This document shows positions 36,854 to 64,000 of a stretch of 64,000 nt of DNA, one piece after another. A program made the translations under genes and the position numbers. The stretch is from a virus (taxonomy: Duplodnaviria; Caudoviricetes): IMG/VR virus record IMGVR_UViG_3300013121_000046. One strand, 5' to 3'. The notes under the pieces were generated by a model. That model was not told the DNA's origin. It was given only the letters and a program-made list of their open reading frames with translations, and did not search any database. The first letter of the stretch is position 1, and every line of letters begins with the position of its first letter.

Positions 36854-36871
36854 ATAAAAATCCGCCTTTCT

Positions 36872-37489: not shown

Positions 37490-37496
37490 GGCTCAA

Positions 37497-39428: not shown

Positions 39429-39461
39429 TATATGACTCCAATACTAGTGGATTAGTAGACT

Positions 39462-41019: not shown

Positions 41020-41063
41020 GCCTAATCCTCAGAATATATGCCCGACATACCTCTTAGAAGCTA

Positions 41064-42280: not shown

Positions 42281-42302
42281 TATTTGTACCTTTTAGAAGC
42301 TA

Positions 42303-42920: not shown

Positions 42921-42942
42921 TATCTGTACCTCTTAGAAGCTA

Positions 42943-43545: not shown

Positions 43546-43564
43546 TATTTGTACCTCTTAGAAG

Positions 43565-47645: not shown

Positions 47646-47647
47646 CG

Positions 47648-48016
47648 CTAAACAGCCCCCATCACATAGTAGTCGATACCAACCACCGACTGCCGCCACG
47701 GTGGGACAGACCGAACCGCCGCGATCCGCAAGGCCATTTCGCGATCAAGCCACTCAATCACATGATCCCCGCTTGATGTTACCACATAGACCGGCGAGCC
47801 GGCCTCGCGGAGCTTGCTATCCGTCGCCCATTGGGGCTTGGTAGGCACGTACCCTGGCTGCTTGGCCTCGATCCAGAACGTAAGACCGTGCGGTGGGACA
47901 ATCACCATCAGGTCAGGGAGCCCGGCCCTTTGGGGCAGTACCAGCCATCCGTGGTCGCGCATTTTTTTGGACAACGCCGCGACGATTGTTGATTTTTTGG
48001 GTTCTGTTTTTTTCAT
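47648..48016 (-). CDS. VRR-NUC (PD-(D/E)xK) nuclease
   Basis: KKSTIV...GLPDL...FWIEAK.PG..PTKPQ. Confidence 0.8.
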   Translation of the reverse strand: MKKTEPKKSTIVAALSKKMRDHGWLVLPQRAGLPDLMVIVPPHGLTFWIEAKQPGYVPTKPQWATDSKLREAGSPVYVVTSSGDHVIEWLDREMALRIAAVRSVPPWRQSVVGIDYYVMGAV

Positions 48017-49354: not shown

Positions 49355-50230
49355 CTAGCTATCCCCGTAAGACACATAGATCAAAGTAGACCTCAACGAA
49401 CCCATCAACCACTGAGATTTTACTGGAGCCCTTTCAAACTGCTTCAGAAGCTCTGGACCCTTAGCCTTAAACTCCTTTACAAACAGACTGCCAGCAAAAT
49501 ATTTTAGATACCGTGCAAGATTATACCTCGCATCAACATCCGCCACAGCAGCCAAAAATAATGCGGCAGCTATTCCCGTATCTACGGCAACATGCTCATC
49601 AGGATTCCGCCGAAAAACCCGGTTCTGACTAGAAATGCACACGATTTCAAACAGTGCCTGACAAACCTCAGCAGAGGGAATGGCTGCCCAATGGGGCGAA
49701 ACTAAGAGTTTTTTAGTCCAGGCCTGAATTATCTCACCCTCAATTTGCGAGGTAAAACGGCTCTTACCTGGGGACACTAACATCTCCCCCAGCGATTCAA
49801 AAGACTCCAACGGTGCAATATCCACGACCTTCCGAATAGCTGCTCTCACAGCATCCTTTATTTCCGGTGTCGTTGTATTTTTGTATGCGTGAATGTAACG
49901 CAAGAGTGTCGGTACAATCTTAGGATACATCGACAAGTAAAAATCAGTTTCCTCCGCCTGAAGGATCTGACTTGGGGTTATCCCATCCCCCCCAGCAACC
50001 AAGCTGTTATAAAGAACCTCGACCTTATCCGTTTCCTTACTCGGAAGCTTGGACTGCTCTTCAACTGCAACAGGGGCCGGGTCTTGATCGGCATTATCCC
50101 CATTGGGGAATAATGTGGCCGACATTTTTTGGACTGTATCAATAGCCGCCTGAAGTTCCCGAATTAACGATACGGGAAGACACACCTCTTTATGGGCTTT
50201 GGTAGGCACGGCAATTTTCCTCAGCATCAT
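49355..50230 (-). CDS. hypothetical helical protein
   Basis: 291-aa ORF behind promoter motif at 50257. Confidence 0.65.
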   Translation of the reverse strand: MMLRKIAVPTKAHKEVCLPVSLIRELQAAIDTVQKMSATLFPNGDNADQDPAPVAVEEQSKLPSKETDKVEVLYNSLVAGGDGITPSQILQAEETDFYLSMYPKIVPTLLRYIHAYKNTTTPEIKDAVRAAIRKVVDIAPLESFESLGEMLVSPGKSRFTSQIEGEIIQAWTKKLLVSPHWAAIPSAEVCQALFEIVCISSQNRVFRRNPDEHVAVDTGIAAALFLAAVADVDARYNLARYLKYFAGSLFVKEFKAKGPELLKQFERAPVKSQWLMGSLRSTLIYVSYGDS

Positions 50231-50315
50231 AAAATCGCATTGAATACCGCTACTCTTATATACCCAAAAATTTGTATCCTAGAGGTAATTCTAGTCAAAT
50301 ACCAGAAATAAAGTT

Positions 50316-50585
50316 CTATCCAACATTAACCGGAGACTCTAAAGTACCCCAAATAAACCAGTTAGGGTATGTCTTGGGATTTGCCCCTTCCCTGGAAAAC
50401 CAAATCCCCCAAATGTGGTAGTCCGGGTCCCAGAAAAATTCAAGAACCATAAGCTGTAAAGATGGGGAGATCCCTGGATAAGTACCTGTCCCATTCTTAT
50501 AAGCCCGAGGCCAATAGCTAAAAGTAAGCCCTGGGAACATTTTCTCAAGAAAATTCTGTATATGCTTGACCGAGTACATATGCAA
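50316..50585 (-). CDS. array B small protein
   Basis: MYSVKHIQNFLEK...YPNWF. Confidence 0.65.
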   Translation of the reverse strand: MHMYSVKHIQNFLEKMFPGLTFSYWPRAYKNGTGTYPGISPSLQLMVLEFFWDPDYHIWGIWFSREGANPKTYPNWFIWGTLESPVNVG

Positions 50586-50651
50586 TACAATCCCACAATA
50601 ACCAGCATTGAATAATATTGGGGTCCCCCCATGCCAACTCCCTTGCCTATT

Positions 50652-50999
50652 TTAAGCTGCTGGGGCTGGATCAAAAGGATCCAATTCCTGGGCATCCTGA
50701 AGTGGAGCCGGAACATATTTGGGGGCCGGAACCCATTTTCTCTTCCAAGGGAGGCACTTTGGCTCCTCTGCATTAATATCCTCTCCCTTGGCTGCCTCCT
50801 TTAGGCGAAGCTCAAGCTCCTCGACCCGTACCTCCAAGTCATGCAATCGCACAGCCTGAGCCTCATCCCTGGCTGTAGCTGCCCCGGCTTCTGCCTCAAG
50901 GGCTCGCACCCGGCACTGCCAAGCTTCTGAAAGCTCTATACCGCGAAAAGCAAACAAAAGCGAAGCTAAACCCAATACAAACTGCAAGAACATAGACAT
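50652..50999 (-). CDS. membrane-anchored coiled-coil protein
   Basis: Hydrophobic N-terminus then coiled coil; AGGAGG SD. Confidence 0.65.
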   Translation of the reverse strand: MSMFLQFVLGLASLLFAFRGIELSEAWQCRVRALEAEAGAATARDEAQAVRLHDLEVRVEELELRLKEAAKGEDINAEEPKCLPWKRKWVPAPKYVPAPLQDAQELDPFDPAPAA

Positions 51000-51005
51000 A
51001 CCTCC

Positions 51006-51287
51006 TCAGAGATTAAGACCAGACACATTGTATCCGCAGACCCTCAGAATTCTCTTGTTGGTGTTAAAGCTTTCCCAGACTCTGGTATAGTTATACCAAG
51101 TAAATATTTTAAGGTCGGGATCATTAGCCTCCCCATAGGCAAGAATAAAGCCTAAAAACCGTATCTCCCGACCTTGGGAATCCCGGTAATTTTGACCATT
51201 GTTAGTGGCAAAAAACACCGTTGGATTACCGTAAGCCGTCTCCCCTAACTTTTCTAGTAGCTTTTTTACCCCCTCCTTTGAGTACAT
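51006..51287 (-). CDS. array B small protein
   Basis: MYSKEGVKKLLEKLG head. Confidence 0.65.
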   Translation of the reverse strand: MYSKEGVKKLLEKLGETAYGNPTVFFATNNGQNYRDSQGREIRFLGFILAYGEANDPDLKIFTWYNYTRVWESFNTNKRILRVCGYNVSGLNL

Positions 51288-51303
51288 CTCAGCTATTCCC
51301 TAC

Positions 51304-51624
51304 TCAGACGGGGGTAAACTTCCGCCAAATTTTCCGTAGGTTTGACTCTATATCGATAAGACCCTTCTGGATGGGGGGGTCAGGTATATACTTAAGCGGA
51401 GGGAGATAGAGTGGAACATAATAAAAATACCACACTTTGTTCGATGCTAAACGTAGGACCAAACTCCCCGTAAAAGCTTCCGAAAGCACGATCTTCATTA
51501 TGCCGTCACTGTCATAACTCATACCCATTGTATACACAGCGGAACTACTGATCTTATCAATAATTCTGTACAGGTCATTCAGTGAGTATTTCATAGTTAC
51601 GCCCCTACAATAATACCCCGACAC
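51304..51624 (-). CDS. array B small protein (likely start MKYS)
   Basis: MKYSLNDLYRIIDK head. Confidence 0.65.
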   Translation of the reverse strand: MSGYYCRGVTMKYSLNDLYRIIDKISSSAVYTMGMSYDSDGIMKIVLSEAFTGSLVLRLASNKVWYFYYVPLYLPPLKYIPDPPIQKGLIDIESNLRKIWRKFTPV

Positions 51625-51687
51625 CCTAAGTTTTTTACAAGAGCCTATATGTCTTCGAGGGAATACTTCATGTCAACATCTATAACA

Positions 51688-52053
51688 CTAGACATGGTGA
51701 CTACCACTTGCCCCCTCGGGATATGGGTATCCCGATTCCCTAAAAACCTGATCGCTTTCACGCATAAAAACTAATCGCCACTCAGGTTTATTATAACATC
51801 CCATGTGACATAGATAGGCTGGGGCTAAATTCCCTAAACACAAAGTATAGAAATAGCAAGTTTCATGGGACAAAACACGACTTAAAGGAATTGATCGAGG
51901 AAAACGGCTATCTGCCCGATGAACTATAAGCTCGGGCTTCCCCAACAATTTCTTGTATAAGCTTATTACGATAGAGTCTGAGTAGTATATACCCAAGGCC
52001 ATAGAAACCCTTAACGAGATGAGTATGGGGCTACTTACCCCAAACAAAAACAC
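51688..52053 (-). CDS. array B small protein (likely start MALG)
   Basis: YYSDSIVISLYKKLLG head. Confidence 0.55.
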   Translation of the reverse strand: MFLFGVSSPILISLRVSMALGIYYSDSIVISLYKKLLGKPELIVHRADSRFPRSIPLSRVLSHETCYFYTLCLGNLAPAYLCHMGCYNKPEWRLVFMRESDQVFRESGYPYPEGASGSHHV

Positions 52054-52165
52054 TCATTACCATACAGAATATTACTACTGGTATAAGTAAAAGAATTGCC
52101 CCCACAAACACGACATGTCCCGGGGGATTGTTTTTAGACTTAAGATCGCTCATCTGCTTCTCCTG

Positions 52166-52438
52166 TTAGTTCTGAGATATTCTTAGGGCCTCATCAACCA
52201 ATTGACTAAGCTCTTCGGCAAAACCAACCTTACGACTATCAATATCTGGAGTATACTCCCCAGAGAAATCATCATCAATATATTGAAATAGTCGCATCCC
52301 ATATCCTGAGGAATTGATGTAAAGCTCAATTTCAAAACCTTCAGGAAGGGCCTTCGCCACCCGATCAATAAAATTCCTGAGCCCCGCCTCGTCGAATTGT
52401 TCGGCCAATTGTGTCAAATTCAATTTAGTATAAACCAT
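52166..52438 (-). CDS. hypothetical protein, paralog of the adjacent gene
   Basis: GLRNFIDRV..ALPEG...GFAEELSQL. Confidence 0.65.
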   Translation of the reverse strand: MVYTKLNLTQLAEQFDEAGLRNFIDRVAKALPEGFEIELYINSSGYGMRLFQYIDDDFSGEYTPDIDSRKVGFAEELSQLVDEALRISQN

Positions 52439-52469
52439 TAAATTAATCTCAGGAAGAGACTAACTCAAC

Positions 52470-52781
52470 TCAACCCAGTAAGTTTACAGACTGGGGCTTT
52501 TGATCGGTTGAATTTTGTTGACTTTCTTCTTCAATTGCGTCCAGCCGTTTCGCCTCTTGCATTAAACGAACAATCGCTTCTGCAAAACCCTCCTCATCAA
52601 TGGGTCCGTAGTCGGCATCTTCCCCATCAAAATCTTCTAGTGAGATACCGCCATAACCATTTTCTAAATGGGGTTTGATTACTAACCCAGGGGGTAACCC
52701 AGCACATATTTCATTAAGAAACTTTCGCAGCCCGATGGTATCAATAGCCGCCGCTAGTTCCTCAAGGGTTTCTCCGCTCAT
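52470..52781 (-). CDS. hypothetical protein, paralog of the adjacent gene
   Basis: GLRKFLNEI..GLPPG...GFAEAIVRL. Confidence 0.65.
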   Translation of the reverse strand: MSGETLEELAAAIDTIGLRKFLNEICAGLPPGLVIKPHLENGYGGISLEDFDGEDADYGPIDEEGFAEAIVRLMQEAKRLDAIEEESQQNSTDQKPQSVNLLG

Positions 52782-52879
52782 TCACTTCCTCCTAACCAAT
52801 AAAATTCCGGAGTCCCGCCCCATCAAATTCTCCTGCAATGAACAAGCACTTCCGCAAAATCCTCTTCAGCATTAAGGGG

Positions 52880-53299
52880 TCAACATCTCCCCTCAAAATC
52901 TTTTAACGAGATGCTGTCGCGTTCCTGGTTTCGCTCCGCATCTCTTTCAATTCGGCGAATTATCCGGTCGAGCACAGCCAAAACTTGCTGCTTAGTACGC
53001 CCTGGAACATCATTCCAGGTGAGTAGAAAATCGAACATATCCTCCTGATTCTTTGAGAAATATTTGGGCCGAATACACGCACAAAAATTTTCTAACCACT
53101 GCTCTTTTTTCTTAGTATTTTTAGGCTTTTCGTTACTAGCCGCAAGCAATGCGCCTAGAACACAAAATTTCTTCGCGTGTACACTGTAAGGGCTAATACG
53201 TTTTTCAGACCGTGTTCTCGCATATGTATATTGCGTCCAGCCTCGATCAATAAGCTTCCGTGCTCGTCGAAGAATTTTTACCTTATCTCTGGTTCTCAT
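52880..53299 (-). CDS. DUF6197-like phage protein
   Basis: RARKLIDRGWTQ...FCVLGAL...WNDVPGRTKQQVLAVLDR. Confidence 0.75.
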   Translation of the reverse strand: MRTRDKVKILRRARKLIDRGWTQYTYARTRSEKRISPYSVHAKKFCVLGALLAASNEKPKNTKKKEQWLENFCACIRPKYFSKNQEDMFDFLLTWNDVPGRTKQQVLAVLDRIIRRIERDAERNQERDSISLKDFEGRC

Positions 53300-53363
53300 A
53301 ATTTCATTCCTTCCTTTCTAATCCAGTACCCTGCCCAGTCAGCTAGGTATCCAACCACATCAC

Positions 53364-53630
53364 CTAGATAAGAATTCTTTTTCCGACACCCCTCTCCCAA
53401 ATATTATAACACCAACGGTAGCCCCGCATTGAATCTCCAATCAAAAAGATATAGGATAGAAAAGAGTGTAACCTAATCTCAATAGTGTACCGTATAAACT
53501 GAGGCTTAAATCCTTCCTTAAGGAGGTTATACTCAGTCTTTTTAACCTGCGACCATCTCTCCCATAATTTCATATCTTCTTCCAATTTTATATAAAGAAT
53601 ATAGATATCCCTTTGTGAATACCTACCCAT
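53364..53630 (-). CDS. array B small protein
   Basis: MGRYSQRDIYILYIK head. Confidence 0.6.
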   Translation of the reverse strand: MGRYSQRDIYILYIKLEEDMKLWERWSQVKKTEYNLLKEGFKPQFIRYTIEIRLHSFLSYIFLIGDSMRGYRWCYNIWERGVGKRILI

Positions 53631-53643
53631 AATCCACCCCTAA

Positions 53644-53688
53644 TAAAGACACCCTATCCAGAAGACTAGTCTAGATAGGGTGTCTTTA
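53644..53688. terminator. probable terminator
   Basis: 15-bp stem TAAAGACACCCTATC/GATAGGGTGTCTTTA. Confidence 0.7.
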
Positions 53689-53739
53689 TAGTACCTAGGT
53701 CAATTGTGGGTTTGAGATCGTGGTTCCCCACCCTCAAGA

Positions 53740-54603
53740 TTAGAGATCACGGGTGGACTTAGTTGCAGTCTTCACCTGTACCTCTTCTTTTTCATTTTCA
53801 TCCTCTTCATCCTCATCCGCCAGAAGCCTGCTCAGTCCCTGAAGGGCTTCCCCGGGGGGGATTCGGTTAATCATAATCTGAATGACCAACTCCTTCAGCA
53901 TCGCCACTGTATACCCATCAGTAGCTGGCCCTAACTGCTCAATTCCAGACTGAGAAACACCCCACCTATCCAACAGATACTCCCTCTGCGGAAGAGCCAG
54001 ACCCAGAACCTTAAAGCGACGATCAATTCGTCCCGGTCGCTTCGACACTCGATCCGGAATTCGCTCCAAATAGTTTGTTGTAGCAATCAAAACCGTCTGT
54101 GAACTAGCATCAGTCAAACCGTCTGTAAGCTGAAGAAATTCAGCTTCCTGATAGTTCAACATATTGTCCAGGTCTTCAATCAGGAGCAAAACTAGCCGGT
54201 TGTCAACCTCCCGGAGTTTTTCCATCGCTGAAATTATTCCCCGAGGGTTGCTCACCATAATCGCCAAACTGTTCTGAGCAATAAAATGTTTGGCAACCTG
54301 AAGCATCATGGTAGTTTTACCCGTCCCTGGGGGCCCATGAAGAAGGTATCCACGGCGATGCGGAAACCCTAACTTTTGGTACTCTTCAGCCTGACCTTGG
54401 AATCGTTTGATATCCTCAATCAAATCGTAGCCAGGGCCACCCAGAAGGTCCACAATCTCCCCCTGACGCATGATCTGTTCTTTGACCCACAACATCCCTG
54501 ATGGAGAAACCCCCATCTCATAAAGACCTGAGGGCAAATCCTGATAATGCGGCTTAGGGGGCAGAAGATAGTGAGTACTCTTTCTTCTATACCAGTTGCT
54601 CAT
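53740..54603 (-). CDS. AAA ATPase (BCS1/FtsH-like)
   Basis: RRGYLLHGPPGTGKT, LLIEDLD, IATTNY, RPGRIDR. Confidence 0.9.
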   Translation of the reverse strand: MSNWYRRKSTHYLLPPKPHYQDLPSGLYEMGVSPSGMLWVKEQIMRQGEIVDLLGGPGYDLIEDIKRFQGQAEEYQKLGFPHRRGYLLHGPPGTGKTTMMLQVAKHFIAQNSLAIMVSNPRGIISAMEKLREVDNRLVLLLIEDLDNMLNYQEAEFLQLTDGLTDASSQTVLIATTNYLERIPDRVSKRPGRIDRRFKVLGLALPQREYLLDRWGVSQSGIEQLGPATDGYTVAMLKELVIQIMINRIPPGEALQGLSRLLADEDEEDENEKEEVQVKTATKSTRDL

Positions 54604-54639
54604 AAGAACCTTTTCAGAGAGTAAAACTACCCAAAGTAA

Positions 54640-54885
54640 CTACTTTACCCAACCCATAGGAATAGTAAAAGACTTCCAGCCATGCTTGGGACTAGCCCGA
54701 TACCAATATATCACCGAATTTTCCCCCTCCTGAACAAAAAAATTATTGGTTTTCATCGAAAAGGGCCGAACTATCCCATACTCGGAAGAACTTCTTCGGA
54801 CTTTTCGCGGTTGCTCCCAGACTATGGATGCTGCCACTGGGGAAACCAAGGCCAGCCAAATCACCCAAAGAATAAAAAATCGCAT
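54640..54885 (-). CDS. small secreted protein
   Basis: Signal-peptide-like MRFFILWVIWLALVSPVAA. Confidence 0.55.
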   Translation of the reverse strand: MRFFILWVIWLALVSPVAASIVWEQPRKVRRSSSEYGIVRPFSMKTNNFFVQEGENSVIYWYRASPKHGWKSFTIPMGWVK

Positions 54886-54908
54886 CTAAAAGTCCCCCCC
54901 AAAAAATA

Positions 54909-55508
54909 CTAGAATCGAGACTCAATCCGGTCCTGCAAATCTTCCGATGGATAAACTCTTTCTCCAGAGATTACTCTCCCGTCGGGCAGTACCTCAACCT
55001 CCCACTCATGGACTTGGTAGATTCCATATTTTGAATGCCGAGAACACAAAGGATTATTAATCCCCTGCCTATACTCGGCTGCCACCGCTTCAGCTTCTTC
55101 TTTGCTCTGATAGAAACCCCGAGTAAACTCGTCCTCACAACAACAGGAACAGCCAGTGCTACACTCAATCACATATAAATTTTTGTTCTTGGGCTTACCC
55201 AACAGACTATTAATTTGCTGTTCTTGCCAAGCAATATGCTCCAAGAGTAATTGAGCCTCAACCAAATCAAACCAGTGATTTACTCCGTCGTATTGCAAAG
55301 ACCTAATCGCCTCAGTTTTCTCCATTGAGTCAGCAACCAACAGAGGTTCAGCCAAAGATTCCAAGATATTAGTACGATCTACCGGAACTACCCTAGACAT
55401 ACCTATCTTCTTAGACATTTTATTCCCAACTTTCAAAATACCTACCCCAAACCTCTTTATCGGCACACAGAAAGAAAAGAATCGCATCTTGCGGAACAAA
55501 AACCTCAC
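54909..55508 (-). CDS. hypothetical protein (likely start MSKKIG)
   Basis: STGCSCC motif. Confidence 0.6.
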   Translation of the reverse strand: MRFLFRKMRFFSFCVPIKRFGVGILKVGNKMSKKIGMSRVVPVDRTNILESLAEPLLVADSMEKTEAIRSLQYDGVNHWFDLVEAQLLLEHIAWQEQQINSLLGKPKNKNLYVIECSTGCSCCCEDEFTRGFYQSKEEAEAVAAEYRQGINNPLCSRHSKYGIYQVHEWEVEVLPDGRVISGERVYPSEDLQDRIESRF

Positions 55509-55770
55509 CCAACTCCTCTAGATCGAGAGAATCGCATCTTCCTGAAATAGGGCCAGACTTTGCTAGTTCACCTAACCCAGTTAAACTATATACCGTGGTT
55601 GTTCTTCGTACAATTTTCGCACCTATTAAGTTCAGGTTGAAGCTATCACCCGGAGCAGGTAGACCAGAAGGTATTTTTCCGACTAAAATCTCCGGACGTT
55701 TCTTAAAGACCACAAGAACTATCTGGGATACTCCCGACATCAGATTAACCATTGTTACAGTCTCGTTCAT
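55420..55770 (-). CDS. hypothetical protein
   Basis: 116-aa ORF. Confidence 0.5.
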   Translation of the reverse strand: MNETVTMVNLMSGVSQIVLVVFKKRPEILVGKIPSGLPAPGDSFNLNLIGAKIVRRTTTVYSLTGLGELAKSGPISGRCDSLDLEELGEVFVPQDAILFFLCADKEVWGRYFESWE

Positions 55771-56054
55771 TTCTAATGCTTACCGGTAACCCTCGATAAA
55801 ACCAAGTAGGAAAAATCCCCATTGATCCAGGGATACGGCATTGGGGAGGCCTCATACATTTTAAGACCCTTTAACACACCCAATACAAACGCTCTAATTT
55901 TCGGCAGTGACTAAAAACTCCAAAACCTACCGAAGTGCTGAGTAATCCACAGCATACTCATCAGGCTCATCGTAACCCTTGAGGACAGGATTTGTGCCCA
56001 CCCAGGCAAAATCTTTAACCGGTATCCCCAATTCCTCCATACCCCAAACAAAAT

Positions 56055-56354
56055 TCAAAATTGATAATACTCCATGCTATACTTAAACCACTCCGGGAGT
56101 CGTTTTCTAAGCTTATCTATTCTCAAATTAGCCTCAGGATACCCGGGAATCATCCCAAAACACCAATAAGTACCATTAAAAATTAGGCCTGATCCATAAT
56201 AAATATTCAACGGACCAAAAAAATCAACGCACAAATTAGGCCCGTAGTCTTTGTGAATATCCACAAAGACCAATCCAACCTTACTCAATACGCTAGCTAA
56301 ATACTCTACGGAATATAGGTCCTTTTGAGAATGGAGAAGATTACTAGCCATCAA
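56055..56354 (-). CDS. array B small protein
   Basis: LYSVEYLASVLSKVG...LPEWFKYSM. Confidence 0.7.
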   Translation of the reverse strand: MMASNLLHSQKDLYSVEYLASVLSKVGLVFVDIHKDYGPNLCVDFFGPLNIYYGSGLIFNGTYWCFGMIPGYPEANLRIDKLRKRLPEWFKYSMEYYQF

Positions 56355-56374
56355 ATTAGAAAGCCTTAGTTACA

Positions 56375-56656
56375 CTAAAGACCTGTTAAAACCCATTCGG
56401 GAAAAATCTCCCTTATTCCATAGTCGCCCACCCAATGACCTATTCCATAGGAGCCCACCCAACGACCTACAGCAGTGTGCCTAACGACAGTTGACCCAAC
56501 CAGGCTATATATCCCGTTCTGCATCTGAAAATTCATTACTTCATACCCACCTATAACGTTAATTGGCTGATTACCTGAAGTCCCTAAATACACAGGAACC
56601 CTTGCGAGCTTCCGCCAAATACGACTCAAATCTTTCCGAGAGTAAAAACTCCTCAT
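56375..56656 (-). CDS. array B small protein
   Basis: FYSRKDLSRIWRKL...FPEWVLTGL. Confidence 0.7.
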   Translation of the reverse strand: MRSFYSRKDLSRIWRKLARVPVYLGTSGNQPINVIGGYEVMNFQMQNGIYSLVGSTVVRHTAVGRWVGSYGIGHWVGDYGIREIFPEWVLTGL

Positions 56657-56782
56657 TTGGAATCTCGATCTACAGCCACATTAGAAATAGACCAGTGAGA
56701 GGCTCATGTAAAGTTTGGCACCTAAGATCTTCTGAGTCATTAGACTCTGAAGTAACATCCATGCGAGCCATCAGATTGAAAA

Positions 56783-57052
56783 TCAATTATAGTATTGCAG
56801 GCTAACTACAAGCCAAGTGGGGAGAAGCTCATCTGTTATTCCATAGTATAGTATCCAGAAACCATCAGAAGTATGCCTAGCGAACGTTATCCCGGTATAA
56901 CCACATTCCCCACTCTTAATGGGAAACTTAAAGGAAACCTCATATCCATCATAGTTAATTGGCACCCATAGATACACCGAATTATTTATCAGCTTTCGCC
57001 AAACACAAGTTAAATCTTTCTGAGAATAGAAACTCCTCATTTGGAATCTCAA
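56783..57052 (-). CDS. array B small protein
   Basis: FYSQKDLTCVWRKL...LPTWLVVSL. Confidence 0.7.
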   Translation of the reverse strand: MRFQMRSFYSQKDLTCVWRKLINNSVYLWVPINYDGYEVSFKFPIKSGECGYTGITFARHTSDGFWILYYGITDELLPTWLVVSLQYYN

Positions 57053-57297
57053 TCTACTGCCACACTCACAGCCCAGTCGCGGCTATCAACCCAGTCACGG
57101 CTATAATAATCATGAAACATAGACCAACGCGGTCTCTTCAAAGTACTCGGAGAGCAAGATAGTAAGACCCGAAAGATTCCAGGGAAATGAATGTTTACTA
57201 TTAGAGCCTTTCCCGGTATGATACGATAACGTACAAACCCATTATTTGCATCAACCATTTTCTTTGCGAGGCGAACTAAATCCTTTCCGGGATACAT
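57049..57297 (-). CDS. array B small protein
   Basis: MYPGKDLVRLAKKM head. Confidence 0.65.
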   Translation of the reverse strand: MYPGKDLVRLAKKMVDANNGFVRYRIIPGKALIVNIHFPGIFRVLLSCSPSTLKRPRWSMFHDYYSRDWVDSRDWAVSVAVD

Positions 57298-57554
57298 CAG
57301 TACGACTCCGCCCTAGGCAAACTCTCCCAAAACCAAGTCCTAACATGCAAGGGTTTCTTTGTACTATTAAGTACAGACAAGGACCAAAGTCCTGATTTGG
57401 ATACATAGAGGATGAGGTAACCTGGAGAACCCATCAAATAAGTACGGGTACTAAAGCTTAGCCTTCCTAACTGGAAAAATTCCGTATGACCAAATCCGCA
57501 CTTCAGGAAGACTTTATTGAGAGATTCAAAAGAATATCTACGCGGTGAGACCAC
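57297..57554 (-). CDS. array B small protein (recent duplicate)
   Basis: RYSFESLNKV...RTWFWESLP. Confidence 0.7.
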   Translation of the reverse strand: MVSPRRYSFESLNKVFLKCGFGHTEFFQLGRLSFSTRTYLMGSPGYLILYVSKSGLWSLSVLNSTKKPLHVRTWFWESLPRAESY

Positions 57555-57604
57555 GATTCATACCTCTCTAAATCCTTTCCAGAATACATCAATACGACTC
57601 CGCC

Positions 57605-57853
57605 CTACACCCTAGGCAAACTTTCCCAAAACCAAACCCTAACATGCTCAGGTCTCTCTGTAGTATTAAGTAAACCCAAGAACCAAAGGCCTGACTTGGA
57701 CACAAAGAGGGTGATGTAACCTGGAGAACCCATCAAATAAGTACGGGTACTAAATCTTGGCCTTCTTAACTGAAAAAATTCCGTATGACCAAATCCGCAC
57801 TTCAGGAGGAATTTATTGAGGGATTCAAAAGAATATCTACGCGGTAAGACCAC
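57605..57853 (-). CDS. array B small protein (recent duplicate)
   Basis: RYSFESLNKF...RVWFWESLP; highly similar to 57297..57554. Confidence 0.7.
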   Translation of the reverse strand: MVLPRRYSFESLNKFLLKCGFGHTEFFQLRRPRFSTRTYLMGSPGYITLFVSKSGLWFLGLLNTTERPEHVRVWFWESLPRV

Positions 57854-57968
57854 GATTCAACCCCCGCTACTTCTATTCACCAAACAGCCCGCAACACCGC
57901 CATCTGTAAACCGGAGTGGTTCTGCAAGATATCTGCTACGCATAGCCCTTTTCCTCTCTGACTAACAC

Positions 57969-58042
57969 TGGGACTGTCGGGGCTCGAACCCGAGACCTAC
58001 GGATTAAAAGTCCGTTGCTCTATCCAACTGAGCTACAGTCCC
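57969..58042 (-). tRNA. tRNA-Lys (UUU)
   Basis: GGGACTGTAGCTCAGTTGGATAGAGCA-ACGGA-CTTTTAA-TCCGT, GGTTCGAGCCC. Confidence 0.93.
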
Positions 58043-58060
58043 GGATATAAATATATACCC

Positions 58061-58104
58061 TAAAGCCAGGGTAGCTACTGCGTAAAAAATCTACCCTGGC
58101 TTTA
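58061..58104. terminator. hairpin/terminator upstream of tRNA-Lys
   Basis: 14-bp stem TAAAGCCAGGGTAG/CTACCCTGGCTTTA. Confidence 0.6.
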
Positions 58105-58123
58105 GTCCCCCCCCCAGTGAGTC

Positions 58124-58276
58124 CTACTCTGGAACATCAATCTCTGGCTCTACGCCAGAGTCATTCCTTGACTCCCCGTAAGCACAATTCAGACTACCGC
58201 AGCAAGGACAAATCTCACCGCCTCTGGCGTAATAACAGTCTTCGCAATTGCAGTATTGGTCATGGGCATAGTCCAT
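58124..58276 (-). CDS. 50-aa Cys-rich microprotein (below ORF-track cutoff)
   Basis: AGGAG SD; MDYAHDQYCNCEDCYYARGGEICPCCGSLNCAYGESRNDSGVEPEIDVPE. Confidence 0.6.
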   Translation of the reverse strand: MDYAHDQYCNCEDCYYARGGEICPCCGSLNCAYGESRNDSGVEPEIDVPE

Positions 58277-58558
58277 TGTCTTCTCCTAATAATCTCGCAG
58301 CGCATTGAATACCGCTACTCTTATATACCCAAAAATTTATATCCTAGAGGTAATTCTAGTCAAATACCAGAAATAAATTTCTGTCCAACATTAACCAGAG
58401 ACTCTAAAGTACCCCAAATAAACCAGTTGGAGTATGCCTTGGGATTTGCCTGGAAAACCAAACCCCCCCAAGGTAGTAGTCCGGGTCCAAAAAAATTCAA
58501 CAAGCATAAACTGTCTCGATACGATACTTAAGTCTGTTAGTAATTTTCGTCGAGATCA

Positions 58559-58858
58559 CTAACCTAACCCACACCAAAACCAGTGCGGAACCAAATCTCG
58601 CACTTTTTGATTGGTACGGCCCGTAGAGATATACCAAAACCTCTGTGCGTCACATCGGGCTTTATAGTATGCTAAACACCCAATTAACCTCCCATTACAC
58701 GTCAGGTACAAACTTAAACCTAGAAAGTCGTTGTGAAGAGACACACTCTGTACACCCTTTCTCAGTACCTTTTTCGCTATCTTTTCTAGGTCTTTATTTG
58801 AATACTTATCCATAACCCTACTCCATATCACACTAACAGTAATTCTAATTGAAACCAA
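58559..58858 (-). CDS. array B small protein (likely start MDKYS)
   Basis: KYSNKDLEKIAKK...VPHWFWCGL. Confidence 0.7.
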   Translation of the reverse strand: MVSIRITVSVIWSRVMDKYSNKDLEKIAKKVLRKGVQSVSLHNDFLGLSLYLTCNGRLIGCLAYYKARCDAQRFWYISTGRTNQKVRDLVPHWFWCGLG

Positions 58859-59133
58859 CTCGGAGCTTTTACTCTCGAAGCCATCCCCCTTTGACTATAC
58901 ACAACCGCTCGCGTTCCCGAATACCAGAGGCCATTTGTCCATTGTGCCACTTGGAAGGTAACTCTTAACCTGTTACTCTTCCGAAAATTCTGGTTAGGTA
59001 AAACATAATCTACAAATAATACTCCACCTAACCCTATTCCGGGTGTAACCTCGTGTCTGATAAGAACTTTATTATCGAGACTTTTTCGCAAGAGTTTCTT
59101 TAAGTCCCTATCCGAATACCTCCCCATGAACAA
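58828..59133 (-). CDS. array B small protein
   Basis: RYSDRDLKKLLRK...APSWFQLEL. Confidence 0.72.
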   Translation of the reverse strand: MFMGRYSDRDLKKLLRKSLDNKVLIRHEVTPGIGLGGVLFVDYVLPNQNFRKSNRLRVTFQVAQWTNGLWYSGTRAVVYSQRGMASRVKAPSWFQLELLLV

Positions 59134-59190
59134 CTCCTTTATTATTCAGAATCTTACCTACATCCTCGGTAGCATAGAGTCCTCTGTCTC

Positions 59191-59529
59191 TCACTTCATC
59201 CTGCTCTCCATATCCTCTCTACAGAGGAGCAAAGACTGCTTCGCCCAAAATGGCATAAAAGTGTCATCCCACTCCACCTCAGATACACCTAAATCTGGCC
59301 GAAGCCACACATTATTCTCCCAAACTAAACCAGCCTTATGCGTCCCATAATGATTATATGCACCCAATGCTGGCACGCTTGGTTGTCTAATTCGGTTCAG
59401 TACATTTTGTGCAGAAGGCCAATACCTAAAGGAGTGCATCTGAATTGAGGCACTGGATGAATCCCCCAAACTGATAGAGTCATAGAATCTGCACACATCC
59501 CTAAATGAGTAGAGATGCTCCGAAGCCAT
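59191..59529 (-). CDS. array B small protein
   Basis: LYSFRDVCRF...MPFWAKQSL. Confidence 0.68.
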   Translation of the reverse strand: MASEHLYSFRDVCRFYDSISLGDSSSASIQMHSFRYWPSAQNVLNRIRQPSVPALGAYNHYGTHKAGLVWENNVWLRPDLGVSEVEWDDTFMPFWAKQSLLLCREDMESRMK

Positions 59530-59573
59530 TTTTCCCCTTCACCTCTAGGACAAAACTCCAGAATTTTCTCAGC

Positions 59574-59843
59574 TTATAAAAATGCTTCCAGAGACTGCAT
59601 CACCCACGGAAAAGCCTTGGTCTGCATAAAATATCTCCAATTCCATTGACAACCATACTTCCAGATGCCGTCCTCATAAAAAATATTGAATCTATACCCG
59701 TACGGACTAGAGGACTCATTATACCCCAAAATAATACTCCCTTTGTGCGGATACGTGAACAAAGGACGACCCGATTCTTGAAATCCCATTGCACAAGTTA
59801 TTTTGAGTAAATCTTTTATGGAATAGGCTGTATTTCTCCGCAT
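59574..59843 (-). CDS. array B small protein
   Basis: AYSIKDLLKI...FPWVMQSL. Confidence 0.68.
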   Translation of the reverse strand: MRRNTAYSIKDLLKITCAMGFQESGRPLFTYPHKGSIILGYNESSSPYGYRFNIFYEDGIWKYGCQWNWRYFMQTKAFPWVMQSLEAFL

Positions 59844-59907
59844 CTCGACTCTATACTCCTTTGCGGAGTATCATACCCCTCTATTGATGACTATGATACT
59901 CCAAAGA

Positions 59908-60180
59908 TCAATCTGAATCTAACTCCCGCATAGACAGAAATAAGTGAGTTCCTCTTACTGGGACCGTCTTCCAGACTATCTTATCGCCAAACACTGTGGG
60001 GTACGTATGACCACACCACACACCTGAAATGAATTTCCAATTCAAGAACAACCCTTGCAAATCCCCATGAGCCCAATCAAAACTCACGGTAAAAATTCCG
60101 GTATGGTCCGCCCAAAATGCACACCCACTTACCCCGGTACTCTCAAGAATCCTGAGCATATCCGATGATGAGTACCGCAT
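59908..60180 (-). CDS. array B small protein
   Basis: MRYSSSDMLRILES head. Confidence 0.68.
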   Translation of the reverse strand: MRYSSSDMLRILESTGVSGCAFWADHTGIFTVSFDWAHGDLQGLFLNWKFISGVWCGHTYPTVFGDKIVWKTVPVRGTHLFLSMRELDSD

Positions 60181-60182
60181 AA

Positions 60183-60419
60183 CTAGCCTTGAATAGAATC
60201 TCTAAACCAAGGGGGCATATGCAGCAAAAAGCCGTAGTCCCACAAAATCTCCCATAAAATATGATCCACCTTAGGGTTACCCTTCTTTCTTGACCATCTC
60301 GTAACAAAGCTACGAGCCGTAACGTAATCCATACGCAACTCTCTCGCACTACCTAGCTTAAACTCCGACAGAGAGCCAACCTTATTCAGTAATTTCACCA
60401 GGTCCGAGACTGAGTACAT
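60183..60419 (-). CDS. array B small protein
   Basis: MYSVSDLVKLLNKVG...MPPWFRDSI. Confidence 0.72.
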   Translation of the reverse strand: MYSVSDLVKLLNKVGSLSEFKLGSARELRMDYVTARSFVTRWSRKKGNPKVDHILWEILWDYGFLLHMPPWFRDSIQG

Positions 60420-60694
60420 GAAAATAATACCTCACGAAACCAGCCGTCATTCTTCTCCCAGAACCACAAAGCATATCTTGATGTACAACCATACCAGCGA
60501 CCCTTATAAAAAAAGGCTAGCTCAATAGGGTTAAAAAATTCGTCTGAGTAGGAGATGCTTGCCTTCAAGGGATAACCCCCTAGTGTGGATAGGGCGGAGT
60601 GAAAACGAAGATTCATCCTCTTATTGGGCATAGTCTTTCCCAGCAATTTTGTTATGTCCGACGATGAGTACTTTCCCATCTCAACTCCCCCCAA
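60395..60694 (-). CDS. array B small protein (likely start MGKYS)
   Basis: KYSSSDITKLLGK...DGWFREVL. Confidence 0.7.
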   Translation of the reverse strand: MGGVEMGKYSSSDITKLLGKTMPNKRMNLRFHSALSTLGGYPLKASISYSDEFFNPIELAFFYKGRWYGCTSRYALWFWEKNDGWFREVLFSCTQSRTW

Positions 60695-60806
60695 TCCTAA
60701 AAATTCCCACAGAAGGACACCATCCCATCATACTTATATGCCTGAAAATAAAGTTCAACCAGGGAGTGTTCCCAAAAAATATCTCTCCTCTGCCTCCCTC
60801 CCCTCG

Positions 60807-61121
60807 TCAGCCCTTGAATACAGGTAACCCCGCAAGAACCCAGTCTGGAAAATAGAAATGCTCCCGAAACAATTTTCTAGGTCGATACCATAATCCTCGA
60901 TAGAATCGTGCAAAAAGATCATACGGCACCATATTCTCTCCCGAAGGGAACATTAAGTCCACTGCGCAGCCAATACCCCCATTCGGTAAATATTGTTCAA
61001 CCCGAGATACTTCTGTTTGACCATACAGGGACATTTTAGCCAGAAGTGATATCAAGTCGCTGTAAGAATACTGAGTCATGTCTGTATCTCTAAAGATCCG
61101 ACGGTCTAAAAAACCAGACAC
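60807..61121 (-). CDS. array B small protein (likely start MTQYS)
   Basis: QYSYSDLISLLAK...FPDWVLAGL. Confidence 0.72.
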   Translation of the reverse strand: MSGFLDRRIFRDTDMTQYSYSDLISLLAKMSLYGQTEVSRVEQYLPNGGIGCAVDLMFPSGENMVPYDLFARFYRGLWYRPRKLFREHFYFPDWVLAGLPVFKG

Positions 61122-61344
61122 TCTTACGGAACCAATAGGGAACCGCCATATATACCAAGGCTTGAGACGTATTCAAGCTAAAATAAACTCTACTTTGAAT
61201 TCTCTCTCGGGTCTTAACCTCAGACTCGACCCAAAAACACAAGTACTCTCTTAGAAATATTTCCCCTGCATTCGGAAATACACTACCCTTGAAACCAACT
61301 TTTTCTACTAATCTAAACATGTCGAAGTATGAATACCGCGTCAT
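61090..61344 (-). CDS. array B small protein
   Basis: RYSYFDMFRLVEKVG...VPYWFRKSV. Confidence 0.72.
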   Translation of the reverse strand: MTRYSYFDMFRLVEKVGFKGSVFPNAGEIFLREYLCFWVESEVKTRERIQSRVYFSLNTSQALVYMAVPYWFRKSVWFFRPSDL

Positions 61345-61424
61345 CGCTGATCCTTCCCTAAGCCTCGATAGAACCGAGTGGCCTACTTAAGTCCCTTACT
61401 AGGTACTTTAACATAAAGTCTTTC

Positions 61425-61658
61425 CTACCGTAGAGAATCCTGAAACCAAGTTGGAGTCTGATCTAATATGTCCTGTACCCAAGAACTAACAGAGGCATAC
61501 CACTCACCTTCTGTATAGAAAATCAAATCATCATACAAATCATCAGTGACTCCTAGACAGAGAAAGACCTCATTCGGATGAAAAAATAAGTCTTCCACAA
61601 CACCTGAAAGAATCTTTCTCAGGATTCTTTCTAAGTCTGCAACTGAGTACCTATCCAT
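61425..61658 (-). CDS. array B small protein
   Basis: RYSVADLERILRK...TPTWFQDSL. Confidence 0.75.
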   Translation of the reverse strand: MDRYSVADLERILRKILSGVVEDLFFHPNEVFLCLGVTDDLYDDLIFYTEGEWYASVSSWVQDILDQTPTWFQDSLR

Positions 61659-62046
61659 TAAAATAGACCCTGCCTAAACCATTCAGGTAACGTCTCATGA
61701 ATTACGGGTTTCCCTAGTTTTTGGGTAGACCCCTAGTTAAGCTGGGGAAATACCCCAAGCTTTTGCCCCAAGTATTTGGTAAAACTTGCCTAAGCTCGGT
61801 ACTAGTCGTGGACAAAACAGGTCTCCAGTACCCATCTGATGGGAAAAATTTCAGATTTAAGTCCGTCCTACGACCAGAAAATACGATCCGAATTGAGCCA
61901 ATATTCATGCAAAGAAATTGCACATCAACAACACCGAAAAGAATTTTTCTCAGGATTCTTTCTAAGTCTACAACTGAGTACTTTTCCATTAAAATAAACC
62001 CTGCCTAAACCATTCAGGTAACGTCTCATGAATTACGGGTTTCCCT
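61597..62046. repeat. 119-bp direct repeat pair (61597..61715 and 61928..62046) spanning a gene tail plus the next gene head
   Basis: Near-identical sequence encoding GKPVIHETLPEWFRQGLF* followed by M(E/D)(K/R)YSV(V/A)DLERILRKIL. Confidence 0.9.
61714..61989 (-). CDS. array B small protein (PEWF tail out of frame)
   Basis: KYSVVDLERILRK head. Confidence 0.68.
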   Translation of the reverse strand: MEKYSVVDLERILRKILFGVVDVQFLCMNIGSIRIVFSGRRTDLNLKFFPSDGYWRPVLSTTSTELRQVLPNTWGKSLGYFPSLTRGLPKN

Positions 62047-62216
62047 GTTTTTTGGATAGACCACGTATACCAATAACCATTTGATCCAACCTTAGATATG
62101 AACCGATACTTAAGACCTAATATTATCTCTCCCCAATACCTATTGTATTTTCTATCCGTAGATGCCCCGATAGTACTTAGAAGTCGATCCAAATCTTCCA
62201 TTGAGTACTTACTCAT
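61989..62216 (-). CDS. array B small protein
   Basis: KYSMEDLDRLL...LPEWFRQGL. Confidence 0.75.
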   Translation of the reverse strand: MSKYSMEDLDRLLSTIGASTDRKYNRYWGEIILGLKYRFISKVGSNGYWYTWSIQKTGKPVIHETLPEWFRQGLF

Positions 62217-62405
62217 AACTTCATCTCCGTCTCCGGTACTATGCCCAATCGAAATCGGTTTGGTGGTTTGACTCTAACCATAAGCCCTCGGGGAACCACC
62301 TATTACCCACAATCGTCATACAAAATTATTTCCCAGGGGTCAACACATCGTACATTACCGCCTCACATTGTCCCAACTAGTCTGCGCAAGTGTTCTACAG
62401 AGTAT

Positions 62406-62657
62406 TTAGTCATTGAAAAGAGACTGAGGGATAATCCAAAGTCCTCCGAGAGCACGGGCCTCTTCACTATTTATGACTTTTCGATTCACATAAGCCAAGG
62501 CGGTGGGTTCGTCCCCCCATACCAGGTAGTAAGCATCTGACCCGGGATCTATTAGGGAGACATGATTACCTAATAACTTTTCCAACAGTTCATCTAAGTC
62601 CTTTTTTGAATACCTAGTACGCACTTGGCAATAGCCACACAATAAATACCCGCTCAT
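62406..62657 (-). CDS. array B small protein (likely GTG start VRTRYS)
   Basis: RYSKKDLDELLEKLLG head. Confidence 0.65.
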   Translation of the reverse strand: MSGYLLCGYCQVRTRYSKKDLDELLEKLLGNHVSLIDPGSDAYYLVWGDEPTALAYVNRKVINSEEARALGGLWIIPQSLFND

Positions 62658-62826
62658 TAAAATGTACCATGACAGGCCAAGCCTTTATCGGTACCTGATA
62701 GACTCTCCATTCTGCCCTTGTACCCCTTAACCAATAAGTATCCGAAGCATCTAAGAGAGAGTGTCTATACCCAGGACATAGCTTTTGTATCAGCCAATTC
62801 AAATGTTGTTTTGAATACTTTACCAC
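62614..62826 (-). CDS. array B small protein
   Basis: KYSKQHLNWLIQKL head. Confidence 0.6.
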   Translation of the reverse strand: MVKYSKQHLNWLIQKLCPGYRHSLLDASDTYWLRGTRAEWRVYQVPIKAWPVMVHFNERVFIVWLLPSAY

Positions 62827-63002
62827 TATACAAATTCAACCCGAAGCGTCACATGGTTAGGGGAGTACCAAAATATTTTAATCATCATATCCCGATACAT
62901 AACTTCCAAAAACCCGGTGCCCTGAAATGACCAACTACTTAGCTTAGCACAGCTAAACTTCCCCGCGAACTTTTCCATATCCTCTCTTGAGTACTTGGTC
63001 AA
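62826..63002 (-). CDS. array B small protein (58 aa, below ORF-track cutoff)
   Basis: GGAG SD, TTG start, TKYSREDMEKFAGK head. Confidence 0.55.
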   Translation of the reverse strand: MTKYSREDMEKFAGKFSCAKLSSWSFQGTGFLEVMYRDMMIKIFWYSPNHVTLRVEFV

Positions 63003-63185
63003 GACTCTCTCCTATTTGCTTCATGTCGAGACTTCCGGCCCCTGTCAAATACAAAGCCTGGAAGATAGTAACTTCTCCAGACTAATACATACTGAAGCCG
63101 TCCCCCCAAAAATCTTCTGAGGAAACTCTCGGATATCTTCACTCGAATACTTATCCCTCCTAAGCAGTATGTACCTCAAAATCAA

Positions 63186-63464
63186 CTATGGTAACAAATA
63201 GAAATTTCGCACAAACCAAGTTTCTATGGAAGGTAGGTTCTTTTCTACCACATGGTACCGGCCCCAAAGGCCGTCAACAAATCGGTAGGTGGTAGACCAC
63301 ACACTAAAGTCCTTTTTGTGTACAGTTATAGTCAGCCCAGTATTACTTGTGGTTATAAAGAATAACACATCATCGGACGTACCGGATACAATTAACATCT
63401 TTCTGCTTAACTTATAGATATCCCGCACAGAATACTTAGGCTTACCCATCACTAAGATATCCAT
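63186..63464 (-). CDS. array B small protein
   Basis: KYSVRDIYKLSRK...ETWFVRN. Confidence 0.7.
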   Translation of the reverse strand: MDILVMGKPKYSVRDIYKLSRKMLIVSGTSDDVLFFITTSNTGLTITVHKKDFSVWSTTYRFVDGLWGRYHVVEKNLPSIETWFVRNFYLLP

Positions 63465-63714
63465 ACCAGTACCAGTGGTGCTCAGGTAGACCTAAAAAAA
63501 ACCATTTGGGAATACATCGGATAGTCCTAAGGCTCCTCCATCTCGAAGAATACCAACGGCTCTCCGCTGACCAGGCAATGGCTACCATATTAGTGGGCTC
63601 TTTGTCCGGGACATGTATCTTCAATACATAGTCCATACCATAAGAAGGTAGGGCTACTCTCCGACCCTCAAAAACCTTACCCAGGAGTCTTAGTAGATCC
63701 CTATTAGAATACAT
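63442..63714 (-). CDS. array B small protein
   Basis: MYSNRDLLRLLGK...IPKWFFLGL. Confidence 0.73.
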   Translation of the reverse strand: MYSNRDLLRLLGKVFEGRRVALPSYGMDYVLKIHVPDKEPTNMVAIAWSAESRWYSSRWRSLRTIRCIPKWFFLGLPEHHWYWYGYLSDG

Positions 63715-63734
63715 TAGTTTCCGGTCCTTATGAG

Positions 63735-63983
63735 TTATAGGCCTTCCCTCTCCTGTAAACTAAATCTAAACCATTGAGGCGTTGGGTCTTTTATACAATT
63801 AAAGACCCTAGTACTGCGCCATAACCGATCTTCGTAAAAAGCAATGTCCCAGAGTCCCTTATTTTCACCCACAAGATACAGTGGGTTCTCGAATGAAAAA
63901 GCAACAGTAAACTTAAATCCTTTAGCGTTAAACTTCCCAACCAACCTATTAAGGTCTGCATTAGAGTAAATTCGTGAGACCAT
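63735..63983 (-). CDS. array B small protein
   Basis: IYSNADLNRLVGK...TPQWFRFSL. Confidence 0.73.
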   Translation of the reverse strand: MVSRIYSNADLNRLVGKFNAKGFKFTVAFSFENPLYLVGENKGLWDIAFYEDRLWRSTRVFNCIKDPTPQWFRFSLQEREGL

Positions 63984-64000
63984 TTTACTCCTCTCAAAAA

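Follow-up and report, generated by a model that had tools for sequence, protein, structure and literature searches.

The 64,000-nucleotide window analyzed here, from the virus record IMGVR_UViG_3300013121_000046 (Caudoviricetes), was part of a 236,349-bp contig, and its gene make-up suggests an uncultured jumbo phage as the source. Between positions 50316 and 63983, the minus strand carried a tandem array of small genes, termed Array B, all from one family; 28 copies were intact and encoded proteins of 58-112 residues, and 5-6 were broken, all within 13.7 kb. We consider this array, with a probability of about 0.5, to be a lineage-specific multigene family of the presumed 236-kb phage that is under selection and provides a one-domain binder scaffold. 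A single family profile aligned all of the copies, intact as well as broken; no member was found on the plus strand, and every copy was located within 50316-63983. The first-pass annotation, which was made from the letters alone, had described about 29 small proteins encoded by tightly packed and often overlapping genes. Both points agreed with our results, since the intact copies came to nearly the same number and the gaps between genes inside the blocks ranged from -25 to +127 nt.

Constant blocks and predicted fold

The N-terminal motif of the family, the “head”, was strongly enriched over shuffled sequence, the comparison that had been proposed as a check on the array. In the six frames of 50001-64000, the loose form Y[ST]xx[DEHN][LIMV]xx[LIVFMA] was matched 30 times, compared with a mean of 1.8 and a maximum of 7 in the shuffles (n=300), and the strict form YSxxD[LIM]xx[LI] was matched 20 times, compared with 0.1. 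The head was located within the first 22 residues of 24 of the 29 members, where 0.04 were expected when the residues of each member were shuffled, and the pattern PxW[FVLW] was located in the final 35 residues of 13 of the 29, with 0.4 expected after shuffling. The hidden Markov model (HMM) of the family found no match at E<=1 in positions 1-50000 of the window.

Three blocks were constant in the alignment. The head reads Y-S-x-x-D-L-x-[RK]-L-L-x-K, a second block, the “centre”, reads G-x-W-Y, and a third, the “tail”, reads P-x-W-F-x-x-[SG]-L. In the head, Y4 was present in 28 of 28 sequences, S5 in 27, D8 in 22, R/K11 in 21, and K15 in 24, and positions 9, 12, 13, and 16 were hydrophobic; the distance from the Met to this block was fixed at 0-6 residues. 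The centre was formed by G58 (22/28), W60 (28/28), and Y61 (21/23), and the tail by P76 (25/26), W78 (21/27), S/G82 (21/27), and L83 (17/27), with a hydrophobic residue at position 79. The tail had first been assigned to most of the members, and proper alignment showed it to be even more widespread, at the frequencies of Pro and Trp just given. The cores, by contrast, had been described as impossible to align by eye, a description that did not survive the discovery of the central block with its invariant Trp. The stretch between head and centre varied freely in length and sequence, yet an alternating hydrophobic pattern was discernible.

The structure of m20 (58559-58813; 84 aa), the member nearest to the family profile, was modelled by AlphaFold2 with an alignment of 24 paralogs, giving a predicted local distance difference test (pLDDT) of 77.7 and a predicted template modelling score (pTM) of 0.66. 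The model consisted of a helix (residues 6-16), four strands (23-29, 32-39, 42-51, and 58-62), and two more helices (66-74 and 77-82), and a family member is accordingly predicted to be a single compact α-β4-α-α domain with its strands in an antiparallel meander. The model of m01 (63735-63983; 82 aa, intact, with a head, GLW, and a PQWF tail) was poor (pLDDT 59), though its first helix was in the same register. In both models, the first helix began one residue past the conserved Ser. Y-S-x-x-D-L may therefore be read as N'-Ncap-N1-N2-N3-N4, in which Ser and Asp would form a capping box flanked by a hydrophobic staple of Tyr and Leu. The invariant Trp fell in strand β4 of the m20 model, and the Pro of P-x-W-F was located just before the last helix; the secondary-structure map and the hydrophobic periodicity suggest that the head, the Trp, and the tail pack together. 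The three constant blocks would thereby build the fold, while the β1-β3 strands, the loops, and the surface charge would be free to vary.

A similar motif has been described elsewhere. A hydrophobic-S/T-x-x-D-hydrophobic sequence at the start of a helix is a conserved folding determinant in glutathione transferases (PMC4429112), and these proteins share with the array the local N-capping box together with a hydrophobic staple at the helix start. They are unrelated enzymes, and the likeness is local and structural, without homology. The array thus offers a clean case of a “signature motif” that may be explained more simply by helix capping than by a function as a tag.

These predictions bear on the roles that the first-pass annotation had given to the parts of the protein. 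Its view of the conserved ends as a shared scaffold was supported by the m20 model, which placed the head and the tail in one domain. Of the common fold proposed with it, in which the head helix packs on the tail Trp, the single domain was returned by the model, and the packing is a reading of the map and the periodicity. The core, to which specificity had been assigned, probably does vary, as the predicted β1-β3 meander, but it would belong to the same domain and would not be an unrelated cargo. [quoted passage not shown]

A tag was nevertheless weighed in its general form, in which a constant head and/or tail docks to one partner (an AAA ATPase, a protease/unfoldase, or the prohead) and the middle carries the specificity or activity. 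The fixed distance of the head from the Met is consistent with it, as is the conservation of K15 (24/28) and R/K11 (21/28) where solvent-facing residues are expected, and the gene of an AAA ATPase (53740-54603) was located inside the array region. We regard this arrangement as unlikely, since the bodies were homologous and shared the central G-x-W-Y block, AlphaFold2 put head, sheet, and tail into one domain, and the head fitted a generic helix-capping motif. Moreover, no conserved residue resembling a protease site followed the head (position 10 was Glu in 4 of 28), and the AAA ATPase gene was 2.4 kb away from the main block, with distant relatives that occurred in phages without the family. 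A complex prediction of the AAA ATPase with m20 scored 0.00, which gave no answer and is evidence neither way.

Searches for relatives led back to the window. A HMMER profile searched against 1.84 billion protein representatives gave 19 matches, all encoded by the window itself, and a k-mer search of 5.8 billion clusters gave self matches only. At E<=10, scans of Pfam and PHROGs with 27 members gave scattered noise in single members and no family, even when weak hits were pooled, and no catalytic family or motif was detected in these scans. No sequence in 50,697 phage records was matched by m20 in tblastn at E<=1. At the level of structure, Foldseek with the m20 model against the PDB reached a best E of 0.29, the wide fold search with VIA-align reached a best Z of 5.7, under the stated noise level of 7-8, and the fold search of BFVD reached a best E of 0.02 at a template modelling (TM) score of 0.42, which was not significant; the ESM Atlas, searched by features and by structure, returned nothing usable. 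In IMG/VR, the AAA ATPase and the flap endonuclease (FEN) of the window had distant relatives only, with no close phage relative, and the family HMM found nothing in those loci. Neither IMG/VR nor the JGI metagenome contigs contained an exact 41-mer used as a query. Megablast against phages matched the tRNA-Lys gene alone. The earlier statement that no described family resembles these proteins was thus upheld, as none of Pfam, PHROGs, the PDB, BFVD, the ESM Atlas, and the 1.84 billion representatives contained a relative.

Two candidates were set aside. An astrovirus spike was the best sequence-profile match in the PDB (E 0.49) and was taken as a chance match. A HicA or dsRBD-like toxin was suggested by the form S-x-x-[DE]-L-x-x-L-L-x-K-x-G of the head; it had no Pfam match at E<=10 in 27 members, and the catalytic His that follows the first strand of HicA was not conserved in the family alignment. 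The HicA fold is α-β-β-β-α; the model had four strands and two C-terminal helices, and the absence of HicA chains from the fold matches listed weighs little either way.

Selection, turnover, and possible function

The invariant residues were encoded by mixed synonymous codons, with TAC in 13 and TAT in 16 cases for Tyr and GAC in 11 and GAT in 12 cases for Asp; the conserved Ser was encoded by four TCN codons and position 9 (Leu/Ile/Met) by eleven codons. The median pairwise identity was 25%, and the synonymous divergence (dS) was saturated for most pairs. Mixed codons together with saturated dS indicate that the constancy of the blocks results from long selection on the protein in each copy, and neither a DNA or RNA signal nor recent homogenisation accounts for it. 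Judged from the sequences, the array proteins share one ancestor and their duplications are mostly old. Start codons were kept in most of the array genes, and a site resembling a Shine-Dalgarno (SD) sequence was present in many. In the three youngest pairs, the ratio of nonsynonymous to synonymous divergence (dN/dS) was 0.86, 0.57, and 0.51, and 5-6 of about 34 copies, approximately one-sixth, were broken, which implied that the constraint after duplication was weak away from the scaffold positions.

Ratios of this size and the broken copies are also what a largely neutral filler would produce, namely a tandem accordion under headful packaging (a “ratchet”), the copies of which drift under a constraint for solubility only. 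Hua et al. 2017 (PMC5646251) proposed that phage genomes can reach jumbo size by tandem duplication, and the finding of no orthologues elsewhere is consistent with this explanation. It is improbable, however, because about 15 positions were kept in 28 copies through saturated synonymous divergence and with mixed codons, which requires long purifying selection on each copy, and because the reading frames, the start codons, and many SD-like sites were kept as well.

The isoelectric point (pI) of the members ranged from 4.1 to 10.7, and neighbours differed by up to 6 units. About 20 of the 29 members had a pI of 9-10.7, and the acidic or neutral ones had values of 4.1, 5.0, 6.0, 6.0, 6.5, and 6.7. 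The proteins were rich in aromatic residues, with 3.9% Trp and 16% Trp, Tyr, and Phe together. The basic majority and the aromatic content could point to nucleic-acid binding, in which an exposed Trp/Tyr sheet and a basic face of α1 would bind RNA or single-stranded DNA. The W-Y pair of β4 was conserved, so one of the two must point away from the helices, and the N-terminal domain of the endoribonuclease RnlA was among the weak fold matches (Z 5.2, below the noise level). This function seems quite improbable, given that several members were acidic or neutral, that adjacent copies could differ so widely in pI, and that no known RNA- or DNA-binding family or fold was matched.

Four similarities at the DNA level were found within the array. 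In the first, a 292-nt tandem unit consisting of m22 (57297-57554; 85 aa) and the first eight codons of m23 (57049-57297; 82 aa, with Y-P in place of Y-S in the head) had been duplicated, which gave m21 (57605-57853; 82 aa, GTG start), a recent duplicate of m22 with 78% amino acid identity, and left a stranded m23-type head remnant at 57568-57590. In the second, a 138-nt patch that runs from the last 24 codons of m09 (61989-62216; 75 aa, intact) across the junction into m10 (61714-61989; 91 aa, intact), of which it takes in the first 22 codons, was repeated at the m10/m11 junction with 92-95% identity, which extended over the DNA of the two heads and fell sharply to background past codon ~22. 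The copied m09 tail was out of frame behind m10 (61659-61731), where it overlapped the end of m10 and the spacer ahead of m11. The proportion of synonymous differences (pS) between m10 and m11 (61425-61658; 77 aa, acidic, pI 4.1) was 0.16 in the head and 0.84 elsewhere, which identified m11 as a mosaic. In the third, m24 (56783-57040; 85 aa) and m25 (56375-56656; 93 aa, in which a 27-nt stretch is repeated in tandem at 56414-56467) were a whole-gene duplicate with 46% identity; pS was 0.47 in the head and 0.48 in the body, and the proportion of nonsynonymous differences (pN) was 0.23 in the head and 0.36 in the body. Equal pS with a lower pN in the head indicated plain purifying selection. In the fourth, a 222-nt repeat with 90% identity linked the 3' half of m31 (50316-50579; 87 aa, the final array gene of the window) and the promoter-like TTTTTGGGTATATA, at 50236-50457, to a truncated m31-type copy with the promoter-like motif at 58301-58514, in which the C-terminal half alone was present (open reading frame (ORF) 58360-58503). 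As these repeats show, the array changes through tandem duplication with breakpoints inside genes and through copied “tail + spacer + head” junction patches.

The mismatches in all four repeat pairs were mostly transitions and affected all bases, with no adenine bias, and no template/variable repeat pair was found among the repeats of the window. Because the repeat mismatches were of this ordinary, transition-rich kind, adenine-directed mutagenesis of the diversity-generating retroelement (DGR) type was excluded for the window. That a DGR or a similar form of targeted hypermutation made the “hypervariable core” is suggested by nothing but the impression of constant ends and a variable middle, and is extremely improbable: the variation was found between old paralogs and not between alleles, no repeat pair of the required kind was present (a reverse transcriptase was sought in the tested ORFs only), and two sequencing runs were identical where they overlapped. 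In public runs, the sequence was present in an activated-sludge metagenome, and identical 151-nt pieces were present in an anaerobic-digester run of a second study; the sequence was identical in the two studies, and the reads showed no variants at ~3x depth.

Joints of a “goes back” type were observed in the activated-sludge contigs, from 58162-58339 to 50275-50670 and from 61867-61997 to 61667-61861. They were located at the two direct repeats with the longest exact stretches, with units of 8065 bp and 331 bp and 38 and 49 nt shared, respectively. Circles or tandem duplications produced by repeat recombination and de Bruijn mis-joins at ~3x depth look alike in such joints.

As to function, we tentatively favour, at rather less than even odds, that the members are non-enzymatic intracellular binders that display variant surfaces on one scaffold and act against host or defence proteins. 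By their sequences, they are small soluble single domains with a conserved scaffold, a variable face, and diverse charge, and the copies are individually kept; a binder repertoire may be the most economical mechanism for such a set, a judgement that we hold just as tentatively. Long polycistronic transcripts would yield a repertoire of variant surfaces, and these would engage different host or defence proteins. In a more specific and rather doubtful version, an “innate repertoire”, the helix caps and the Trp core would stay constant, the three-stranded face would be diversified, and each copy would neutralise a different defence or takeover target; junction-spanning recombination would continually yield new head/body/tail mosaics and alter the copy number. 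If the array is a host-directed binder repertoire, it could supply both new anti-defence proteins and a compact scaffold for binders.

Several observations weigh against binders on a selected scaffold. The function of the array is inferred throughout, and the fold rests on one medium-confidence model, that of m20, since the m01 model reached a pLDDT of 59. The conserved K15 and R/K11 were on the expected solvent face of helix α1, and a pure folding role does not explain their conservation, so a common ligand may still exist. The dN/dS of 0.5-0.9 in the youngest pairs and the broken one-sixth of the copies would be equally expected of relaxed constraint, and there were no orthologues in other phages to show arms-race turnover.

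Members of the array and their surroundings

The other members, all on the minus strand, were m02 to m08, m12 to m19, and m26 to m30. Following m01, m02 (63442-63714; 90 aa) and m03 (63186-63449; 87 aa, with another possible start at 63464) were intact. The next copy, m04 (62999-63185), was broken into two frames, with the head at 63045-63185 and the body at 62999-63142, and was split at a T5G6 run; this frame change (63080-63130) may mark a pseudogene with a genuine frameshift or a slippery site, or it may come from an error at the homopolymer in the low-depth assembly. Of the copies next to it, m05 (62826-63002; 58 aa, TTG start) contained the head and a central FWY without the tail, m06 (62614-62826; 70 aa, GTG start) was divergent, m07 (62406-62624; 72 aa) was short, with the centre and the tail fused as GGLWIIPQSLF, and m08 (62363-62413) was broken, with nothing but 16 residues of the head before a stop. 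Intact copies were found in m12 (61090-61344; 84 aa), m13 (60807-61079; 90 aa), m14 (60395-60679; 94 aa), m15 (60183-60419; 78 aa), which overlapped m14 by 25 nt, m17 (59574-59843; 89 aa), and m19 (58828-59127; 99 aa, pI 10.7). The tail of m16 (59908-60180; 90 aa) was degenerate, m18 (59191-59529; 112 aa) was the longest of the family, and m26 (56055-56354; 99 aa, TTG start) had a longer leader ahead of the head. Toward the other end of the array, m27 (53364-53630; 88 aa) was a divergent outlier directly downstream of the AAA ATPase gene, m29 (51645-51671) was another broken copy, cut to 8 head residues by a stop, m28 (51304-51594; 96 aa) had an extended tail region, and m30 (51006-51287; 93 aa) was divergent, with the head MYSKEGV.

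Other elements were located between these genes. An inverted repeat at 53643-53689, between the AAA ATPase gene and m27, had 20-nt arms that were 95% complementary and a 7-nt loop, and could be a terminator or an operator. Two adjacent genes in the array region, 52166-52438 and 52470-52781, encoded a pair of acidic paralogs (90 and 103 aa, pI 4.2 and 4.1) that had a 49-nt repeat with 76% identity in common and no family match. In the middle of the array, a tRNA-Lys(UUU) gene (57969-58042) and a Cys-rich ORF of 50 aa (58124-58276) were directly downstream of a promoter-like motif at 58322-58335. This motif, TTTT(T/G)GGGTATA(C/T/A)T, occurred in 36 copies across the window at <=3 mismatches, compared with 9 expected, mostly on the minus strand. 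Examples were found at 17432-17445, 25807-25820, 28967-28980, 32990-33003, 50257-50270, and 59718-59731 in addition to the mid-array copy; several were shortly upstream of tRNA genes or the glutamyl-tRNA synthetase gene, and among the copies listed, only 59718-59731 was within the main array block.

The minus strand carried every credible gene of the window, whose cumulative GC skew fell monotonically. The window contained seven tRNAs, a glutamyl-tRNA synthetase (GluRS), an intein/LAGLIDADG gene, the FEN, and a Dam-type methylase, and its domain families included DUF5131, DUF6197, and the classic AAA ATPase; no capsid or terminase gene was found in the window. The neighbourhood of the array was accessory in character, with the methylase, a pentapeptide-repeat protein, the DUFs, a second array, and the tRNAs. 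This second tandem family, Array A (34932-44179), consisted of about 14 co-oriented paralogs of ~205 aa, and the member tested (42303-42920) had no match in Pfam or PHROGs. Two GC-rich islands, 30001-32600 (56%) and 45700-48000 (61%), stood out in a genome of 42-46% GC and look like later acquisitions; the former contained the full-length GluRS, and the latter the pentapeptide-repeat protein, DUF5131, and DUF6197. An ORF of 798 aa at 7723-10119 carried the intein splicing and LAGLIDADG endonuclease domains.

Comparison with known systems

Earlier work described tandem runs of more than 30 similar genes in the jumbo phages G and 121Q (PMC5646251), and the first-pass annotation had therefore gone too far in calling the array the best candidate for an undescribed system. 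Those arrays resemble the one described here in consisting of dozens of co-oriented tandem paralogs over many kb of a large genome, that of a phage of more than 200 kb there and probably here, and they were likewise read as products of tandem duplication. They belong to a different protein family, since the tblastn search of m20 found no match in the phage records, and their genes are very similar to each other, whereas the genes of Array B were far more diverged. Arrays of this kind are thus already known; what is new is the family, along with the logic of its motifs and the fold predicted for it. Paralog arrays are turning out to be recurrent in giant phages and functionally unexplored, and this family, with its small, soluble proteins and its plain division into constant and variable parts, would be a convenient model to distinguish a binder repertoire from a by-product of genome inflation.

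The junction patch has a counterpart in the lpl cluster of Staphylococcus aureus, in which the recombining unit reaches from the 3' end of one gene across the spacer into the 5' end of the following gene and generates mosaics (Tsuru & Kobayashi 2008; PMC2568036). The 138-nt patch, copied from m09/m10 to m10/m11, is an example of such a junction-spanning unit. In the lpl cluster, it is the ends that vary, and the conserved site of recombination lies in the centre, whereas in the array the protein ends are conserved and the middle varies; furthermore, the lpl genes encode bacterial lipoproteins and are not phage genes, and the array provided a single clean patch. In T4-type phages, recombination between short repeats shuffles the small ORFan genes of hyperplastic regions, which are non-essential, in a process mediated by the promoter early stem-loop (PeSL) (Arbiol et al. 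2010; PMC2839356). Similarly, the promoter-like motif was present in the 222-nt repeats at 50.2 and 58.3 kb, and one contig joined these repeats as a circle or a duplication would, but most intergenic gaps of the array contained no promoter and stem-loop cassette, and the joint may have arisen in the assembly at 3x depth.

The internal proteins of T4 are small and have a near-identical N-terminal decapeptide for capsid targeting, followed by a site for the prohead protease, while the rest of their sequences differ; one of them is anti-restriction. They are similar to the array proteins as several small phage proteins with a shared N-terminal segment. In contrast to them, the bodies of the array proteins share G-x-W-Y and P-x-W-F, the prediction places the head inside the fold, and the sequence after it lacks a conserved residue of a cleavage site, with Glu at position 10 in only 4 of 28. 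The multigene families (MGF) of African swine fever virus (ASFV) and the ankyrin/PRANC families of poxviruses are terminal families in which individual lineages have multiplied one scaffold, with surfaces that vary, for use against host defences. Their sequences, folds, host domain, and gene sizes are unrelated to those of the array, and the likeness, which is one of logic only, would lie in the lineage-specific expansion of a scaffold.

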